From NCBI GenBank assembly GCA_017992215.1, contig JAGOOZ010000002.1, positions 1 through 36,177 on the forward strand: 36,177 nt of DNA, in the 5' to 3' direction. The notes under the pieces are model-generated. The model searched no databases and was not told the DNA's origin. It saw only the letters and a list, made by a program, of their open reading frames with translations. Below are positions 18,944 to 36,177 of the stretch, piece after piece. The stretch comes from Minisyncoccota bacterium (GTDB taxonomy: Bacteria > Patescibacteriota > Minisyncoccia > Phycocordibacterales > UBA9973). The first letter of the stretch is position 1. The number at the start of each line of letters is the position of its first letter. Both the position numbers and the translations under genes were made by a program.

Positions 18944-19432
18944 ATGGATACACACGAAAAGGTAAAAGCAGACTCATCATATGCAATACATATGGTCCTC
19001 TCTCATTCATACACAATGTTTATGCTCGCACTTGTTGCTGGGCTTGTTCTTCATCTTGTGTTTGAAATACCACTTTTTGTATCTGGGGCATATCAGTATC
19101 TCGGGGTGGTGTTGATTATTATAGGGACATATCTTGTCTGGTGGGCTCAATCAACAACAAGAAAAACAAAACAAGAAATGAGCCAAACACAGCCTTCTCG
19201 TGATTTTGCTCGTGGCCCATACAAGTACAGCCGTAATCCTACACACATTGGGCTCACACTCACAACGCTCGGTCTCGGACTTATCTTGAATTCTTTTTTT
19301 ATTTTTGTTGTGACGATTATTGCATCACTTATTTCGAAATATATTTTTATTAAAAAAGAAGAAGCACTTCTTGAGGAAAAATACGGCGATGAGTATCGTG
19401 AATACAAGAAGACAGTGAGTACATGGGTATGA
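18944..19432 (+). CDS. membrane methyltransferase of the isoprenylcysteine carboxyl / phospholipid methyltransferase-like family
   Basis: Polytopic protein. C-terminal region GPYKYSRNPTHIGL...EEALLEEKYGDEYREYKK matches the ICMT/PEMT-type signature. Start moved to the ATG at 18944 (the upstream part overlaps the polA end). Confidence 0.7.
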   Translation: MDTHEKVKADSSYAIHMVLSHSYTMFMLALVAGLVLHLVFEIPLFVSGAYQYLGVVLIIIGTYLVWWAQSTTRKTKQEMSQTQPSRDFARGPYKYSRNPTHIGLTLTTLGLGLILNSFFIFVVTIIASLISKYIFIKKEEALLEEKYGDEYREYKKTVSTWV

Positions 19433-19576
19433 TCCCGTTAGAGACCCTGCCTTTGCCGGCAGGCAGGCGCGGTCGTAGTAAAAAATACAATGGATGTCTT
19501 TAAAACAAAAGTAGAAATTATAAATAAACAAAACAGTGTTGCGTTACGGACCGCGACCTGTCTCTAACGGGATGAT
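19429..19576 (+). mobile_element. MITE-like inverted-repeat element, copy A (138 bp plus ATGAT duplications)
   Basis: Left: CCCGTTAGAGAC 19434-19445, CGCGGTC 19468-19474. Right: GACCGCG 19549-19555, GTCTCTAACGGG 19560-19571. Direct ATGAT at 19429-19433 and 19572-19576. The second copy is at 23107-23234. Confidence 0.6.
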
Positions 19577-20489: not shown

Positions 20490-20507
20490 GTGCCCTCGGT
20501 AGGAATC
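20490..20507 (-). repeat. 18-bp exact duplicate of the tRNA-Lys 3' end
   Basis: GTGCCCTCGGTAGGAATC at 20490-20507 is identical to 20642-20659 (T-loop to discriminator of tRNA-Lys, plus 1 nt). Confidence 0.8.
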
Positions 20508-20521
20508 TTTCATTACATGAA

Positions 20522-20600
20522 CAGTATACCTTTTCAGCTCGCAGGGTGCGAGCAAAGAAAAGCTTTTCGATTCCTACACACAAGCAAAATGATTTGCTTG
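20522..20600 (+). repeat. structured module, copy L (contains a T-arm-matching segment for tRNA-Lys)
   Basis: Blocks are CAGTATACCTTTTC (20522-20535), hairpin GCTCGCA-GGG-TGCGAGC, GAAAAGCTTTTCGATTCCTACACACAAGC (20557-20585), and hairpin CAAGCAAA-ATGA-TTTGCTTG (20581-20600, with 20581-20585 shared with the preceding block). Collinear with 27561-27641 (minus) and 36100-36177 (plus). Confidence 0.5.
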
Positions 20601-20611
20601 TTCGAGTAAAT

Positions 20612-20635
20612 AAAAAACGACCTAAGTCGTTTTTT
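20612..20635. terminator. bidirectional intrinsic terminator downstream of tRNA-Lys
   Basis: AAAAAACGAC, loop CTAA, GTCGTTTTTT. Confidence 0.75.
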
Positions 20636-20642
20636 ATTCGGG

Positions 20643-20715
20643 TGCCCTCGGTAGGAATCGAACCTACGACCATCTCCTTAAAAGGGAGCTGCTCTACCGA
20701 CTGAGCTACGAGGGC
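20643..20715 (-). tRNA. tRNA-Lys (anticodon UUU)
   Basis: Hand-folded 73-nt cloverleaf: GCCCTCG/CGAGGGC acceptor, GCTC/GAGC D-stem, anticodon loop CTTTTAA, T-arm GTAGG-TTCGATT-CCTAC, discriminator A. CCA is not encoded. Confidence 0.9.
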
Positions 20716-20856
20716 ATATAATAAACAAAGCTAATTATCACATATTCAGTTGAAACCGCTACGACTGAACTATAAGGGTATATCTTTATAACGTGTAAAA
20801 AAGATTTTACTTGTGAAAATTCTCTTTTACACGTACACTCAAAAATATCACACTTT

Positions 20857-22532: not shown

Positions 22533-23111
22533 TTATTTTCCTCCTAAAATTTTGAGTGCTTCTTTGATTCGTGCATTTGTTCCTTCGATAGAAGGGGGGA
22601 TTTGCTTGAGTGCATCACGAGCTTCGTTTTGTGAATAGCCGAGAGCTTTGAGGGCTTCGATGATATCACTTTCTTCTCGAAGCACACCTGGTGTGTGGCT
22701 ACCACCAGTATGTGCTTTTAATTTATCACGTAGTTCGAGAACTATTTTATCCGCTGTTTTTCTACCAATACCAGAAACCTTGTTGAGATAGCTTGTGTCA
22801 CCAGTTGCAATCGCTTTTTTGAGTGTATCAATTGAAGCGACAGCGAGAATCGAGAGGGCAGACTTGGGTCCAATACCAGAAACATCAAGGAGGAGTTCGA
22901 AGAATGATAATTCATCTATCGTTGCGAATCCATAGAGGTCGAGAGAGTTTTCGCGGACAGCCGTATATGTCCAAAGTGCGACCGTGTCGCCCATGCCATA
23001 TGCACCCACAGTATCAGTTGTAATAAATACTTTATATCCAACACCATTAACGTCAATAACGAAAAACTTGTCAGTCGTATGAATAATAGTGCCTTCGATT
23101 CGTGCAATCAT
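22533..23111 (-). CDS. ruvA: Holliday junction DNA helicase subunit RuvA
   Basis: MIARIEGTI... N-terminal OB domain, HhH motifs (VSGIGPKSA, VSGIGRKTA), and C-terminal domain III. Confidence 0.93.
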   Translation of the reverse strand: MIARIEGTIIHTTDKFFVIDVNGVGYKVFITTDTVGAYGMGDTVALWTYTAVRENSLDLYGFATIDELSFFELLLDVSGIGPKSALSILAVASIDTLKKAIATGDTSYLNKVSGIGRKTADKIVLELRDKLKAHTGGSHTPGVLREESDIIEALKALGYSQNEARDALKQIPPSIEGTNARIKEALKILGGK

Positions 23112-23234
23112 CCCGTTAGAGACAGGTCGCGGTCCATATGTAAGGAACCGTTTTGCTGTGTTGTGAAAATAAGTAAATAATTAAATGTATACCCGTATTT
23201 AGTAAACCGTGACCGCGGTCTCTAACGGGATCAT
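23107..23234 (-). mobile_element. MITE-like inverted-repeat element, copy B (118 bp plus ATGAT duplications, inverted relative to copy A)
   Basis: Plus strand: CCCGTTAGAGAC 23112-23123, AGGT, CGCGGTCC 23128-23135 ... GACCGCG 23211-23217, GTCTCTAACGGG 23218-23229. ATCAT at 23107-23111 and 23230-23234 (ATGAT on the minus strand). Confidence 0.6.
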
Positions 23235-24307: not shown

Positions 24308-24379
24308 GGTCCCGTCGTTCAATGGATAGGACGTAACTTTGCGGAAGTTATGATGCAGGTTCGATTCCTGCCGGGATCA
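24308..24379 (+). tRNA. tRNA-Arg (anticodon GCG)
   Basis: Hand-folded 72-nt cloverleaf: GGTCCCG/CGGGATC acceptor, GTTC/GGAC D-stem, anticodon stem TAACT/AGTTA with loop TTGCGGA, T-arm GCAGG-TTCGATT-CCTGC, discriminator A. CCA is not encoded. Confidence 0.85.
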
Positions 24380-24444
24380 CAGAGTCGAGTGCTAGTTCGA
24401 GCACTCGACAAGGGTCATCAAATACCTTTGTTATAAAGAACAAC

Positions 24445-24479
24445 AAAAATAGCTAACGAGATAATCGTTAGCTATTTTT
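24445..24479. terminator. bidirectional intrinsic terminator after the recombinase gene
   Basis: AAAAATAGCTAACGA, loop GATAA, TCGTTAGCTATTTTT. Confidence 0.75.
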
Positions 24480-24495
24480 GTTTGAAAAGTTAGTT

Positions 24496-25779
24496 TTACG
24501 CTTTAACTGTTATGATCTTATTTTTCAAAACTAGATCGTTTTTTATACAATCAAGAACCGATCGTTTTTCTAAAATTGTTCCGTCTTTCAAAACGAACTT
24601 CATGTAATTTCTGAGATCAACTTTCTGTATATCAGCTGGGTTGTCCTTTCCTAAAAACATCGCTTGAAGCTTTTTGAATTTCTTGATTTCAAGATTCAGC
24701 TTTTCATTAAGTTGTACTTCATTAAGGTCCAAAGTTCCTGCCATTTTCTGAAATTCTTTTAATAAGTCATCTTCGTTTATTGCAGGATTTGTGCATTTTC
24801 TATCTTTAGATTTAGTACATCTATAATAGACATGTCTATTTACTCCGCCATTTAGTAATTTCTTAAATTTCTCGTCTGCCGTAATACCTGATCCGCACAT
24901 TCCGCACTTCACCATTCGAGTAAACGCAAACTCTTTTCCATGAGTTTTTATAACCTGCGTTTTGATTGCTGATCGGCAATCATCAAAAAGTTCCTTGCTA
25001 ATTATTGGCGTATGCTTTCCGTCGTACCAGTTTCCACTGCCTTGTGGAAACTCAAATCGTCCGTAATAAAAGGTGTTGTTGATTATTTTAAATACATTTC
25101 CAAGACTTAGATAAAACCCTCTATGTGTTTTGAAATTCAGTTCATACCGTAACCATGAGTATACTCTCATTCCGCTCCACCGTTCGTATGCGATTTTCTC
25201 AAAAATCTGTTTAATTACTGGTGCTCGTTCGGGATCAATCTCTACTTCGCATTTCGCTAGTCTCTTGTTTGATTTCCTGTATCCAGTTGGCGGTTGTACT
25301 GGCCATAATCCCATTTCGCACCGTGCTCTCATTCCTCGCTTCACATTGATACTCTTGTTGTCATTCTCTAGTTTTGCTTGAGAGCATAAAATCATCAAGA
25401 GGAATTTATCACTTGGCGAATTAGTAAATGTTTGCCCGAATGTCTTGATTTGAGTTAACTTCTTTTGATCAATACGATCCACCAACTTTCCCAAATCTCC
25501 AGCATTTCTTGAAAGACGATCTGGTGCCCAGGTAATAATTGCGTTGAATATGCCGTCGTCTATGTCTTTTAGTATTTCCTCAAACACGGGTCGTTGACCT
25601 GACTCTTTTGCACTATGAGATTCACGACGGATCTCTACCACATTCAAACCTTCACGCTCTGCTATTTGGCTCATTTCCTTGACCTGGGAATCAATGGAAA
25701 GGGCTTGCTTTTCTTCGTCTTCGGTTGATTTGCGGGCGTATAAGCAATATTTAAGATTATCTTTTATTATTTCTGTCAT
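24496..25779 (-). CDS. large serine recombinase (resolvase/invertase catalytic domain, recombinase domain, zinc ribbon)
   Basis: N-terminus LYARKSTEDEEKQALSIDSQ (catalytic Ser context), DRLSRN motif, a central recombinase domain, and a Cys cluster (CGMCGSG...YYRCTKSKDRKC). Its 3' end lies 116 bp from tRNA-Arg. Confidence 0.9.
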   Translation of the reverse strand: MTEIIKDNLKYCLYARKSTEDEEKQALSIDSQVKEMSQIAEREGLNVVEIRRESHSAKESGQRPVFEEILKDIDDGIFNAIITWAPDRLSRNAGDLGKLVDRIDQKKLTQIKTFGQTFTNSPSDKFLLMILCSQAKLENDNKSINVKRGMRARCEMGLWPVQPPTGYRKSNKRLAKCEVEIDPERAPVIKQIFEKIAYERWSGMRVYSWLRYELNFKTHRGFYLSLGNVFKIINNTFYYGRFEFPQGSGNWYDGKHTPIISKELFDDCRSAIKTQVIKTHGKEFAFTRMVKCGMCGSGITADEKFKKLLNGGVNRHVYYRCTKSKDRKCTNPAINEDDLLKEFQKMAGTLDLNEVQLNEKLNLEIKKFKKLQAMFLGKDNPADIQKVDLRNYMKFVLKDGTILEKRSVLDCIKNDLVLKNKIITVKA

Positions 25780-25897
25780 ACATATATTGATGACAGAGAA
25801 AGATAGTTTTGCTAAGACTATGCAGAACTAGATATACGTCGCATACTCGCAAATAGCTTTTACCTCTTTATTTTAATCTATTTTGTGATATAGTAAC

Positions 25898-26040
25898 TTT
25901 ACTACATATTGAAGCCTGTGAACCACTGACAAGGGGGAGGCAACGATACGGAGCCAGAGAAAAAAGTAGGGTGGCACCGCGATATACTATCGCCCCTGCG
26001 AGCTTATCAACATAAGTTCGAAGGGGCATTTTTGTTCCTT
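25898..26040 (+). promoter_or_regulatory. T-box riboswitch leader (transcription attenuation) for aspS
   Basis: Conserved T-box sequence AGTAGGGTGGCACCGCG (25965-25981). Terminator stem 25992-26027 (GCCCCTGCGAGCTTAT...ATAAGTTCGAAGGGGC), whose 5' half overlaps the antiterminator 3' strand, followed by a T-tract at 26029-26034. Candidate specifier GAC-A at 25928-25931. Possible extended -10 TGATATAGT just upstream. Confidence 0.8.
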
Positions 26041-26054
26041 CATCTCTAATAAAT

Positions 26055-27347
26055 ATGATTATAAGAACCTATATTAAAGACATTCCTGAATATTCAGGGA
26101 AAGAGGCTACTATCGTAGGCTTTGCTCACACTATTCGTGCGCAGAGTAAAATTGCATTCCTTATCGTTCGCGATGTGACTGGCATCTTACAGACAGTCGT
26201 TACCGCTGAACAGGTCGAGGCTTTTCAAATTGCTAAGGAACTTAGCACAGAATCAGTATTGAAGGTTACAGGTCTCGTGAAAGAGGCAGCGCAGGCACCT
26301 AGTGGTTATGAAATAGAAGTTAGTACAATTGAAGTACTTTCATCTGCCGATGCGCAGCTACCGATACCAATTCTTGAAAAGAAAGGCGGAGAAGAAACTG
26401 AAGCGCCTATACGTTTCGACTATCGTTGGATTGATCTTCGCAAGCCCGATCATCTAAAGATTTTCAAAGTATGGACGGAACTTGAAAAAGGCTTCCGTGA
26501 CTACTGGGATAAAAATGATTTTATTCAAATCTATACACCTTCATTTATGTCAACGCCAAGCGAAACTGGCGCTGAGGTATTTGAAGTAAACTACTTTGAC
26601 CGCAAAGCATATCTTGCACAATCACCGCAATTCTATAAGCAAATGGCTATTGCAAGTGGTTTTGAAAAAGTGTTTATGACAGGCCCCGTATTCCGCGCAG
26701 AGCTTTCATTTACTACTCGACACCTTACCGAATTTACTGGTTGGGATTTTGAAATGGCGTACATTGAATCTCATCAAGACATCATTGTTGCCGAGGAAAA
26801 CATGATTGTTTCCGGATTTACTAGATTAAAGGAAAAGTTCCCAGAGCTTCGTCTAGAAATCCCTAGTATGCCTTTTCCGCAGATCACTATGGTTGAAGCA
26901 AAAAGGATACTTGCAGAGCGTGGCGTGGCAAGCGGAGAAGAACACGATCTCTCTCCAGAAGAAGAACGGGCTATCAGTGAATATGTGCGAGAAAAACACA
27001 ACCACGACTTCGTATTCATTACTGAATACCATGTATCAAAAAGTGCCTTTTACCATATGCGCAACGAGGAGGGTCGTGGCAAGCGCGCAGACCTTTTGTT
27101 TAAAGGAATCGAAGTAACAACACTCGCTCAACGCGAACATCGCATTGAGATTCTTGAAAAACAAGCAAAGGAAAAAGGGATGTCATTTGAAGAACTGAAA
27201 GATTATCTCAACTTTTTCCGCTGGGGATGCCCTCCACATGGAGGTGCAGGTATTGGCCCTGGACGATTCATTATGAAAATCCTCGACCTGCCAAACGTTC
27301 GCGAGGCGACTTATCTTCCAAGAGATGTTAAGCGATTAAATCCATAA
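26055..27347 (+). CDS. aspS: aspartyl-tRNA synthetase, archaeal/eukaryotic-type (class IIb, about 430 aa)
   Basis: N-terminal OB anticodon-binding domain, AYLAQSPQFYKQ, motif 2 FRAE..T.RHL.EF, QREHR, and C-terminus GCPPHGGAGIGPGRFIMKILDLPNVREATYLPRDVKRLNP, which matches the archaeal-type AspRS ending (FPRD..RL.P). Confidence 0.92.
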   Translation: MIIRTYIKDIPEYSGKEATIVGFAHTIRAQSKIAFLIVRDVTGILQTVVTAEQVEAFQIAKELSTESVLKVTGLVKEAAQAPSGYEIEVSTIEVLSSADAQLPIPILEKKGGEETEAPIRFDYRWIDLRKPDHLKIFKVWTELEKGFRDYWDKNDFIQIYTPSFMSTPSETGAEVFEVNYFDRKAYLAQSPQFYKQMAIASGFEKVFMTGPVFRAELSFTTRHLTEFTGWDFEMAYIESHQDIIVAEENMIVSGFTRLKEKFPELRLEIPSMPFPQITMVEAKRILAERGVASGEEHDLSPEEERAISEYVREKHNHDFVFITEYHVSKSAFYHMRNEEGRGKRADLLFKGIEVTTLAQREHRIEILEKQAKEKGMSFEELKDYLNFFRWGCPPHGGAGIGPGRFIMKILDLPNVREATYLPRDVKRLNP

Positions 27348-27357
27348 TAGTAAAAAT

Positions 27358-27382
27358 GTTACAGCAATCTGTAACCTTTTTA
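27358..27382 (+). terminator. intrinsic terminator after aspS
   Basis: GTTACAG, loop CAAT, CTGTAAC, then CTTTTTA. Confidence 0.75.
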
Positions 27383-27392
27383 CTTAAACCTG

Positions 27393-27442
27393 TGTCACTT
27401 TTGTCACTTTTTGTCGCTCGACAAGGTTCATTTAGGTATAAT
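27393..27442 (+). promoter_or_regulatory. phased TGTC(A/G)C triple repeat upstream of a consensus TATAAT
   Basis: TGTCAC 27393-27398, TGTCAC 27402-27407, TGTCGC 27412-27417 (9-10 bp phasing), then TATAAT at 27437-27442. No ORF follows. Confidence 0.35.
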
Positions 27443-27512
27443 GAAAATGCATGAAAAAGCCTTGTGGAGTAAGGAACCCCACGGTCGCACCACGACTAGG
27501 CTCACCCGTTAG

Positions 27513-27548
27513 AAAAAGAGCTGTCTTTGATAGACAGCCTTTTTCTTT
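27513..27548. terminator. bidirectional terminator-like hairpin inside the structured region
   Basis: AAAAAGA-GCTGTCT, loop TTGAT, AGACAGC-CTTTTTCTTT. Confidence 0.6.
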
Positions 27549-27752
27549 GGGTGATCCCGAAGAAGACATCTGCATGTCTTCTGTGCAGGAATCGAAAACC
27601 TTTTCCGTGTGAGTGTACTCACGAACGGAAAAGGTGTACTGATCCTGTGATTGAGTACAATCACCTACTGGGTAAGGGTCGATATGCGTACTCGCGGTCC
27701 TACCGTTGGTGTTGTTTTGATTACAAAACCACCAATCACGCGCCGTTGGCGA

Positions 27753-27769
27753 GATTACCCTGCCGGGAT
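27753..27769 (+). repeat. imperfect direct copy of the tRNA-Arg 3' end
   Basis: GATTACCCTGCCGGGAT compared with tRNA-Arg GATTCCTGCCGGGAT (24364-24378). There is an 11-nt exact core CCTGCCGGGAT plus GATT with a 2-nt insertion. Confidence 0.45.
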
Positions 27770-34106: not shown

Positions 34107-34154
34107 AGCATTTTTGGGGGAGGGGGGTCTGAGTATCTTTTTCGAATCTCACTG
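34107..34154 (+). repeat. truncated copy of the structured-module 5' part; left direct repeat of the 1.9-kb islet
   Basis: GAGTATCTTTTTCGAATCTCACTGATTCTGTACA (34121-34154) matches 36073-36106 at 28 of 34 positions. The upstream GGAGGGGGGTCT resembles GGAGGCGGTGAGACCGC at 36056-36072. Confidence 0.6.
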
Positions 34155-34245
34155 ATTCTGTACATAAATACCATACTCATTTATGTACTCGCCTGAGGCC
34201 TCTTTTATTGGAAATAGAACACCTTGTGGGTAAATTGTAGGAGTC

Positions 34246-35829: not shown

Positions 35830-36055
35830 AAATTATGGATGTTGATTAGGAATAATAATATGTTTCTTTGCTTATATAGTACCTATAACCTATAATATCC
35901 TTTGCTCTAGTGAAATTTGGAGTTCCTGTTGCTATTACCTCAACAACTTCATTTTTATCATTCAATAGATGAACTGTAGAGGTGGTTTCATAGTCGCTTT
36001 ACCCCTTGAACTACACTCTCGCAAATTATAATCGCGAAAACGCTCATTAATTTGC

Positions 36056-36177
36056 GGAGGCGGTGAGACCGCGAGTACGCGTTTCGAATCTTACAGATTC
36101 TGTACACCTTTCGTATTTCTTCGAATGATTACATTCTCATAAATATACTCAAGGTTTTCGAATCTCACACAGAAAGC
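36056..36177 (+). repeat. structured module, copy W (runs off the window end)
   Basis: CGGTGAGACCGCGAGTACGC (36061-36080) resembles the minus strand of 27685-27704. CTGTACACCTTTCG is at 36100-36113. AAGGTTTTCGAATCTCACACAGAA at 36151-36174 is collinear with copies L and M. Confidence 0.5.

Follow-up and report, generated by a model that had tools for sequence, protein, structure and literature searches.

Integrative elements that target tRNA and transfer-messenger RNA (tmRNA) genes, together with their non-autonomous derivatives, remnants bounded by att sites that resemble cis-mobilizable elements (CIME) or miniature inverted-repeat transposable elements (MITE), are the closest described counterparts of a small module that recurs in a 36,177-nucleotide (nt) stretch of a Minisyncoccota bacterium genome (assembly GCA_017992215.1, contig JAGOOZ010000002.1; the whole stretch is called the window below). 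Those elements use a site at the 3' end of the gene, leave a direct repeat of the 3' part of the tRNA, and keep the tRNA intact by supplying a replacement end and a terminator. They also accrete in tandem and show presence/absence polymorphism. The module is like them in all of these respects. It differs in that it contains no integrase, is only ~150 nt long, has one core lineage at many tRNA species, carries an inverted, hairpin-interrupted copy of the target, and conserves hairpin structure instead of protein-binding arm sequences. By analogy, the module may work like such an element stripped down to the att region. The reading that we favor, and hold to be somewhat better than evenly probable, is that the three window copies (M, L, and W) are small protein-less insertion elements at tRNA or tmRNA 3' ends, non-autonomous and mobilized in trans.

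Other described systems share some features with the module and depart from it in others. The attC sites of integron cassettes and CTX-type single-strand elements are likewise imperfect palindromes with variable sequence and conserved structure, in which one strand folds better, and they form arrays. The left boundary of the module, G/TT of the T-loop (the slash marks the boundary), recalls the G/TT crossover of attC and attI. However, the boundary sequence G/TTCGAWT (paired with AWTCGAA) does not fit RYYYAAC ... GTTRRRY, as position 4 is C and not a purine. The integron integrase, attI, and cassette open reading frames (ORFs) are not present at modules, which have no recurrent neighbor family and stand alone beside tRNAs, and the palindrome arms copy the neighboring tRNA and are not element-specific. 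The bridge RNA or seekRNA of IS110/IS1111 is also a structured non-coding module with a conserved scaffold and variable target-matching segments, and only IS110/IS1111 are named as RNA-guided recombinases in a September 2026 review (PMC13604230). The module arms are continuous helices of at least 20 nt over one site, whereas the IS110/IS1111 RNA has two internal loops with short target and donor guides, and the direct repeat is 20-22 nt versus a 2-nt core. Pfam detected no DEDD (RuvC-like) transposase among the window neighbors, and no family recurs in 120 loci, although the full set of loci was not searched for IS110 with Pfam. REPIN/REP sequences, bacterial interspersed mosaic elements (BIME), and mosaic intergenic repeats are similarly short, multi-copy, hairpin-forming, modular, non-coding, and presumably mobilized in trans. 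In contrast to these, the module is found strictly at tRNA or tmRNA 3' ends, and the inverted repeats that flank it come from the target; a RAYT-type gene (REP-associated tyrosine transposase) or conserved GTAG-type motif was not identified for it.

The window has three copies of the module and two tRNA genes, Lys(ttt) and Arg(gcg), each matched by one copy.

27769-27511, minus strand: copy M
20490-20638, plus strand: copy L
36054-36177, plus strand: copy W, truncated by the window end
20640-20716, minus strand: tRNA-Lys(ttt), the partner matched by copy L
24308-24380, plus strand: tRNA-Arg(gcg), the partner matched by copy M

An earlier note, made from the letters of this DNA, had described M, L, and W as copies of a structured module, and all of the sequence blocks that it quoted were located where it placed them. 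The core pattern used here, TCGAAAASCTTN{14,44}AAAGGTRTACWG in opposite-strand notation, spans block 2 of that note, its variable hairpin (hairpin A), and block 3. In degenerate form it matches the window three times, precisely at M, L, and W, with 0 matches expected from 100 shuffles. The 12-mers TTCGATTCCTGC (M) and TTCGATTCCTAC (L) are indeed identical to the T-loop and 3' T-stem of tRNA-Arg(gcg) and tRNA-Lys(ttt), respectively. The tRNA predicted from copy W, with T-stem GTGAG/CTCAC, also exists: in L194, a different assembly of this region, the completed W module comes immediately after tRNA-Ser(tga). (L followed by a number is the label of a fetched locus or contig, while copy L is the module copy in the window.) The W module is completed in L193 and L194, where tRNA-Ser(tga) then adjoins it.

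The modules are an apparently undescribed but widespread family in Patescibacteria, and their variable segment follows the adjacent tRNA. A metagenome scan with the core pattern found the module in at least 120 contigs, with 135 instances, 128 of them distinct, among the matches listed; the family counts below come from these. A convergent tRNA is located 55-100 nt past the TTTTCGA motif in ~80 of the 128 distinct instances, and 15 amino-acid types are represented. In one case (L080) the partner is a tmRNA gene, and the arms match the tmRNA 3' end. The variable 12-mer equals the T-loop and 3' T-stem of its own tRNA in 38 of 80 instances, compared to 1.4 (maximum 6) with permuted tRNAs. The tRNA-tracking claimed in the earlier note is thus supported by ~80 tRNA-linked instances. 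The acceptor 7-mer was found after hairpin B, the second hairpin, in 33 of 80 instances, compared to 1.3 with permuted tRNAs. No recurrent protein family occurs within 4 kb of the modules in the 120 loci. Between modules and distant tRNAs at 9 loci there is no obvious integrase among the ORFs, as judged by ORF lengths and the first 60 residues without a family search. A single match came from viral contigs, in an ordinary chromosomal arrangement. The earlier note knew of no described family with this layout, and none was found in Rfam 15 or in the searchable literature, to which access was limited. With Rfam 15, only true tRNAs and tmRNA were detected (gathering thresholds on the window and 13 loci, and E<=10 on copy L). 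Literature pairing Patescibacteria with attP or "miniature inverted-repeat" gave nothing relevant, so that novelty is stated within that limited access.

The anatomy of the module shows that it contains a complete copy of the tRNA 3' end. Along the tRNA strand, one meets in turn tRNA nt 54-73 with trailer and intrinsic terminator, the inverted trailer and acceptor 3' strand, hairpin B, the inverted T-stem and T-loop (..GGAWTCGAAAASC), the core, and a direct repeat of nt 54-73. The core consists of TCGAAAASC, hairpin A, AAAGGTRTACWG (GGTRTACWG), and a hairpin of 5-6 bp with a GUA triloop. The whole element is non-coding and ~130-190 bp in size. Beyond the second hairpin the acceptor 3' strand of the tRNA resumes (TCGGGATCACCC in M), showing that the complete 3' end, nt 54-73, has been copied and is split by hairpin B at the T-stem/acceptor junction. 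The far side of the module is bounded by the direct repeat of the tRNA 3' end. This repeat starts at T54 or T55, stops at the discriminator, and is 21-22 nt long; in tandem arrays it extends through the trailer to 46-47 nt. A second terminator often follows the displaced repeat. The parts of copy M are as follows.

27758-27769, plus strand: first direct repeat (DR1), the displaced copy of the tRNA-Arg 3' end, with exact CCTGCCGGGAT at 27759-27769
27686-27704, minus strand: "block 1", an older antisense T-stem (GGTAGGA) and an optional mini-hairpin insert CCGCGAGTACGC
27642-27685, minus strand: remnant of the TAC/GUA triloop hairpin (GACCC-TTAC ... AGGAT), by comparison with canonical copies
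27633-27641, minus strand: conserved CAGTACACC (GGTGTACTG in tRNA-sense orientation)
27599-27634, unstranded: hairpin A, with closing stem CCTTTTCC/GGAAAAGG
27585-27598, minus strand: inverted arm, part 1, in which TTTTCGATTCCTGC is the tRNA-Arg T-loop and 3' T-stem (nt 54-65)
27561-27582, unstranded: hairpin B, a 9-bp stem at the T-stem/acceptor junction of the inverted arm
27549-27560, minus strand: inverted arm, part 2, in which TCGGGATCACCC is the tRNA-Arg acceptor 3' strand, discriminator, and gene-encoded CCC
27511-27548, unstranded: bidirectional intrinsic terminator; it is the apex of a long palindrome in which the arm and the 3' end of tRNA-Arg were originally connected

Copy M is atypical in three ways. 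A 25-nt insertion with a hairpin of its own interrupts the triloop hairpin, a second, older antisense T-stem is present, and 3.1 kb of inserted DNA lies between the copy and tRNA-Arg. Block 1 of the earlier note is present, but it proved to be an optional mini-hairpin insert found in a subset of copies only; CCGCGAGTACGC occurs also in L090, L092, L104, L111, L160, L176, L185, L188, and W. Copies L and W, and a remnant of a fourth module, have the following parts.

20490-20507, plus strand (antisense as written): copy L DR1, which repeats 18 nt of the tRNA-Lys 3' end exactly and in direct orientation, with its partner at 20642-20659
20509-20562, unstranded: copy L core, with TAC/GUA triloop hairpin (20509-20521), CAGTATACC (20522-20530), and hairpin A (20530-20562)
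20564-20606, plus strand: copy L inverted arm, with TTTTCGATTCCTAC (20564-20577), hairpin B (20580-20601), and acceptor remnant TCGAG (20602-20606)
20608-20638, unstranded: copy L bidirectional terminator, separating the module from tRNA-Lys
36054-36068, plus strand: copy W DR1 GCGGAGGCGGTGAGA
36069-36108, plus strand: copy W block-1 insert (36069-36081), TAC hairpin (36087-36099), and CTGTACACC (36100-36108)
36106-36168, plus strand: copy W hairpin A (36106-36155) and TTCGAATCTCAC (36157-36168)
34131-34164, plus strand: decayed fourth module remnant, with a block-1-like segment, anti-T-loop, and CTGTACA but without hairpin A

The inverted arm is derived from the 3' strand of the tRNA gene. 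Where the tRNA has acceptor pairs that are not Watson-Crick (G-U or mismatch), the arm complements the tRNA 3' strand exactly in 12 of 25 informative cases and copies the 5' strand in 0. The arm also carries the gene-encoded ACCC and not CCA, showing that its source is DNA or the primary transcript, not mature tRNA. Over 13 nt there are 1.94 mismatches between tRNA and arm and 2.10 between tRNA and repeat, but 3.75 between arm and repeat. At positions where tRNA and repeat differ, the arm agrees with the tRNA in 46 cases and with the repeat in 3. This pattern indicates that the arm belongs with the tRNA-proximal copy and that the distal repeat is a decaying relic. A selected helix between the arm and the downstream repeat was considered and rejected; the two diverge independently and show no compensation. 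One core lineage might acquire matched arms for each new tRNA if the inverted arm truly acts as a guide, if template-switch or quasi-palindrome correction copies the adjacent tRNA, or if copies recombine with one another.

The hairpins of the module are maintained by compensatory change, as the earlier note had proposed. In the GUA hairpin, every pair has 8-30 double compensatory changes and 0-4 broken pairs (51 sequences). The stem of hairpin B is 9 bp long in 58 of 120 instances and at least 8 bp in 93; the hairpin occurs in 107 distinct sequences, among which the loops GGG and CUGC recur. When 51 full modules were aligned with MAFFT and folded with RNAalifold, the GUA hairpin alone was recovered, because hairpins A and B are out of register in the alignment; these two were analyzed sequence by sequence. 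One long palindrome, with a median of 24 pairs that are nearly all Watson-Crick, runs from the acceptor 3' strand of the tRNA through the trailer and terminator to the inverted arm. The tRNA-sense strand is the more stable one in 109 of 118 full modules. Among 111 distinct cores, the tRNA-sense strand gives the better fold of the hairpin A interior in 88 and the opposite strand in 22, with G-U pairs divided 70 versus 23, although these cores represent only ~35 types and are not independent observations. Strand bias is slight or absent in the GUA hairpin, hairpin B, and the long palindrome. These results suggest that the functional form is a single strand on the tRNA-sense side, either RNA or single-stranded DNA (ssDNA). 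The earlier note had read the reverse complement, and for a single-stranded form that strand is probably not the functional one, since hairpin A folds better on the tRNA-sense strand.

Occupancy of orthologous sites suggests that the modules are mobile. At the tRNA-Lys(ttt)/SpoU locus, L210 and L211 have the tRNA, a terminator, and the next gene, with no module. A tyrosine integrase gene occupies this locus in L212 (1-850) and L215 (1-830), showing that this 3' end is a hot spot for at least three kinds of elements. L214 has a degenerate module, while modules are present in the window, L219, L107, L132, and L147. The module arm in L219 mirrors the variant T-loop of its own tRNA (TTCAATT, mirrored as AATTGAA). 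Occupancy is interleaved with the SpoU phylogeny: the SpoU proteins of L215, which lacks the module, and L219, which has it, are 82% identical. Presence/absence polymorphism at orthologous sites is thus found in comparisons that are deep, at roughly the genus level. Deeper relatives were used for the comparison of empty sites, and the contigs of the window's own species break at the tRNA or the module. In public assemblies of that species (L199-L203 and L205-L209), breaks occur repeatedly inside tRNA-Lys or module L. The module repeat appears to fragment assemblies. Together with the direct repeats of nt 54-73 and the tandem arrays, the empty orthologous sites bear out the suggestion of the earlier note that the module behaves as the att region of a tRNA-targeting element.

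The modules are also modular, in that cores and arms are combined freely. There are ~35 hairpin-A types, each of which adjoins many tRNA species; the type of copy M has 14 instances at 11 tRNA species. L160 and L095 each have near-identical cores at different tRNAs within one contig, with differing arms, hairpin B, and terminator. Tandem arrays are common, and L075 has two different cores at one tRNA. The second copy in L160 joins the arms of tRNA-Ser(gct) to a repeat and flank that belong to the tRNA-Ser(tga) site of W, a sequence arrangement that indicates recombination between cores. In L180, two module copies 3 kb apart enclose cargo genes and further tRNA-end fragments. A LAGLIDADG-like ORF (..GFLYADGN..) was seen in L152, at 654-1373 of the gap between a module pair and tRNA-Met. 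A difference between assemblies was seen near copy W as well: comparison of L193 (3480-3590) with L194 (100-130) shows tRNA-Ser(tga) swapped for unrelated DNA just before the W terminator, with that DNA ending in AGTAGTGACCGC (one assembly of the window's species). This end resembles the right end of the serine-recombinase element described below and may be another insertion at a tRNA 3' end.

If the modules are insertion elements mobilized in trans, their life cycle might be as follows. The element would integrate by site-specific recombination, with its left boundary at T54 of the T-loop. It would bring a replacement tRNA 3' end and a terminator, and the displaced original end would be left as the direct repeat. 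A recombinase encoded elsewhere would mobilize it in trans. The substrate may be a folded single strand of tRNA sense, ssDNA or RNA, akin to integron attC sites, and the choice of tRNA would be set by the tRNA-derived arms and not by protein alone.

Several points weigh against this explanation. The hairpins are far better preserved than the tRNA-derived arms, which could reflect selection in place for a host function. Simple site-specific recombination leaves unexplained how one core lineage acquires new arms, a new hairpin B, and a new terminator for each tRNA species. The evidence for mobility is comparative and includes no recombinase, circular junction, or excision product. The empty and filled genomes are only ~70-80% identical in the flanking protein, so the boundaries are not mapped base by base. 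Modules are found at the same tRNA despite ~50% SpoU identity, which is compatible with long retention. The dependence among the strand counts noted above also belongs here, and the motifs used in the scan are conserved by construction, so that their conservation cannot be evaluated.

Two other explanations, both unlikely in our judgment and about equally so, assign a function to the folded module. In the first, the inverted, hairpin-interrupted arm is a programmable guide that, in a folded single strand of RNA or ssDNA, would pair with the module's own copy of nt 54-73 and with the corresponding segment of the target tRNA or tmRNA gene, and a trans-acting recombinase would exchange strands at the T-loop. 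If this were true, it would be a form of target-matched integration unrelated to IS110/IS1111, and one core could be re-aimed at any tRNA by swapping ~20 nt.

In the second, to which we give the same low weight, the module is a non-coding RNA gene useful to the host. It would be transcribed downstream of the tRNA or tmRNA from the tRNA strand, possibly by read-through, and act as a tRNA mimic or regulator. Its paired arms would resemble the "top half" (acceptor and T-arm) of the neighboring tRNA, with hairpin B where the D and anticodon arms would emerge. Hairpin A is indeed stabler on the tRNA-sense strand, as an RNA would be, and hairpin B is placed at the equivalent of the 7/49 junction. 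The retention of three hairpins by compensatory change, with conserved loops GUA, GGG, and CUGC, and the presence of modules at the same tRNA-Lys locus at ~50% SpoU identity agree with this as well. However, a strong bidirectional terminator stands before the module on the tRNA strand, and no promoter-like (sigma-70-like) site was found on either strand near copies L and M. The module is missing at 56 of the 145 tRNAs with sufficient flank in module-bearing contigs and at 72 related loci. Orthologous sites can be empty, and tandem arrays and decayed remnants occur. The arm pairs through the discriminator and C74, unlike an acceptor end, and it shows no compensation with the downstream repeat. 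There is no covariance-model match to tRNA, tmRNA, YrlA, or the other tRNA-like families in Rfam, and the 5' strand comes from the 5' acceptor strand of the tRNA in 0 of 25 cases.

Tandem-inversion duplication is an improbable source of the modules as a whole. According to this explanation, a direct-inverted-direct triple repeat arises by snap-back or template-switch replication at the quasi-palindromes of the terminator and T-arm, and there is no separate element or function. In agreement with this, the repeated segment has the T-arm and the terminator loop as its exact limits, the terminator hairpin forms one of the junctions, and the palindromes are nearly pure Watson-Crick with little strand bias. 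Such a duplication cannot explain why more than 120 contigs, with 15 tRNA types, share a conserved ~80-nt core and a hairpin B of 9 bp, or why near-identical cores are found at different tRNAs in one genome. Such replication could still describe how arms are generated after insertion of a core.

The module is very improbably the guide RNA or att-site partner of the adjacent serine recombinase family, setting its tRNA target, as the earlier note had speculated; this proposal is largely refuted. The recombinase belongs to a separate 3.1-kb serine-recombinase element, located between tRNA-Arg and copy M and distinct from the module.

24381-27505, minus strand: serine-recombinase element
24496-25779: recombinase gene, 427 aa, with Resolvase, Recombinase, and Zn_ribbon_recom domains
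26055-27347: AsnRS-like cargo gene
27392-27505: conserved 115-nt element end, common to L005

In favor of the proposal, the recombinase gene lies between M and tRNA-Arg, and near-identical recombinases are found beside different tRNAs. Close homologues of the recombinase number in the thousands; they occur in very many Patescibacteria at 75-98% identity, and the nearest relatives (91-98% identity) lie ~110 nt from tRNA-Glu, versus tRNA-Arg in the window. Two loci, L181 and L185, carry both a module and a recombinase homologue. However, these are the only ones among the 120 module loci (in the matches listed), and 0 of 72 genome loci with recombinase homologues have a module by strict and relaxed patterns, so the co-occurrence suggested in the earlier note is not borne out. 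The DNA shared with other recombinase loci is limited to 24358-25850, plus 27392-27505 in L005, which ends exactly at the terminator end of M, and it stops outside M at 24358 and 25850/27505. These limits show that the element inserted at the tRNA-Arg 3' end and parted a pre-existing M from its tRNA. The element joins tRNA-Arg at its extreme 3' end (after GGGATCAC), a sequence common to tRNA-Glu and this tRNA-Arg; the crossover, immediately after TCAC, is outside the module and not in the T-loop, as distinct from what a large serine recombinase att site within the module would require. In L185 the same kind of recombinase element lies within the displaced tRNA-Glu repeat of the module instead.

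Decay of duplicated tRNA genes, by which modules would be tRNA pseudogenes with insertions, is hardly credible and was rejected: the modules do hold T-loop, T-stem, and acceptor sequences of their neighbor, but the arm complements the 3' strand in 12 and copies the 5' strand in 0 of the 25 informative cases, D-arm and anticodon-arm remnants are absent, and neither ARAGORN nor the Rfam tRNA model detects the modules.

Other features of the window were observed near the modules. Pfam identified a hydrolase, AsnRS, serine recombinase, and SpoU among the neighboring proteins. The tRNA-Arg at 24308-24380 has the unusual anticodon GCG, and its D-arm and acceptor end are like those of the tRNA-Glu genes beside the related recombinases. 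A MITE-like repeat of ~150 nt is present in two inverted copies (19429-19576 and 23107-23234) with terminal inverted repeats of ~30 nt (ATGATCCCGTTAGAGAC..CGCGGTC). A 3.5-kb segment with tRNA-Lys, SpoU, Fpg, and RuvA lies between the two copies, which also overlap with the start of a 227-aa ORF and that of ruvA.

The modules may represent a new way of choosing integration sites in Patescibacteria. If the best-supported explanation is true, these organisms carry abundant protein-less elements, so far unannotated, at the 3' ends of tRNA and tmRNA genes. Such elements would reshape tRNA 3' flanks, provide terminators, break assemblies, and mediate rearrangements. The occurrence of one core type with arms that copy up to 11 tRNA species is not explained by protein-only integrases. 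This combination of core and arms suggests either that base pairing serves to recognize the target or that the arms are rewritten from it; each would be a new principle of site choice. The module family also provides a sequence-defined handle for tracing the responsible enzyme by phylogenetic profiling.

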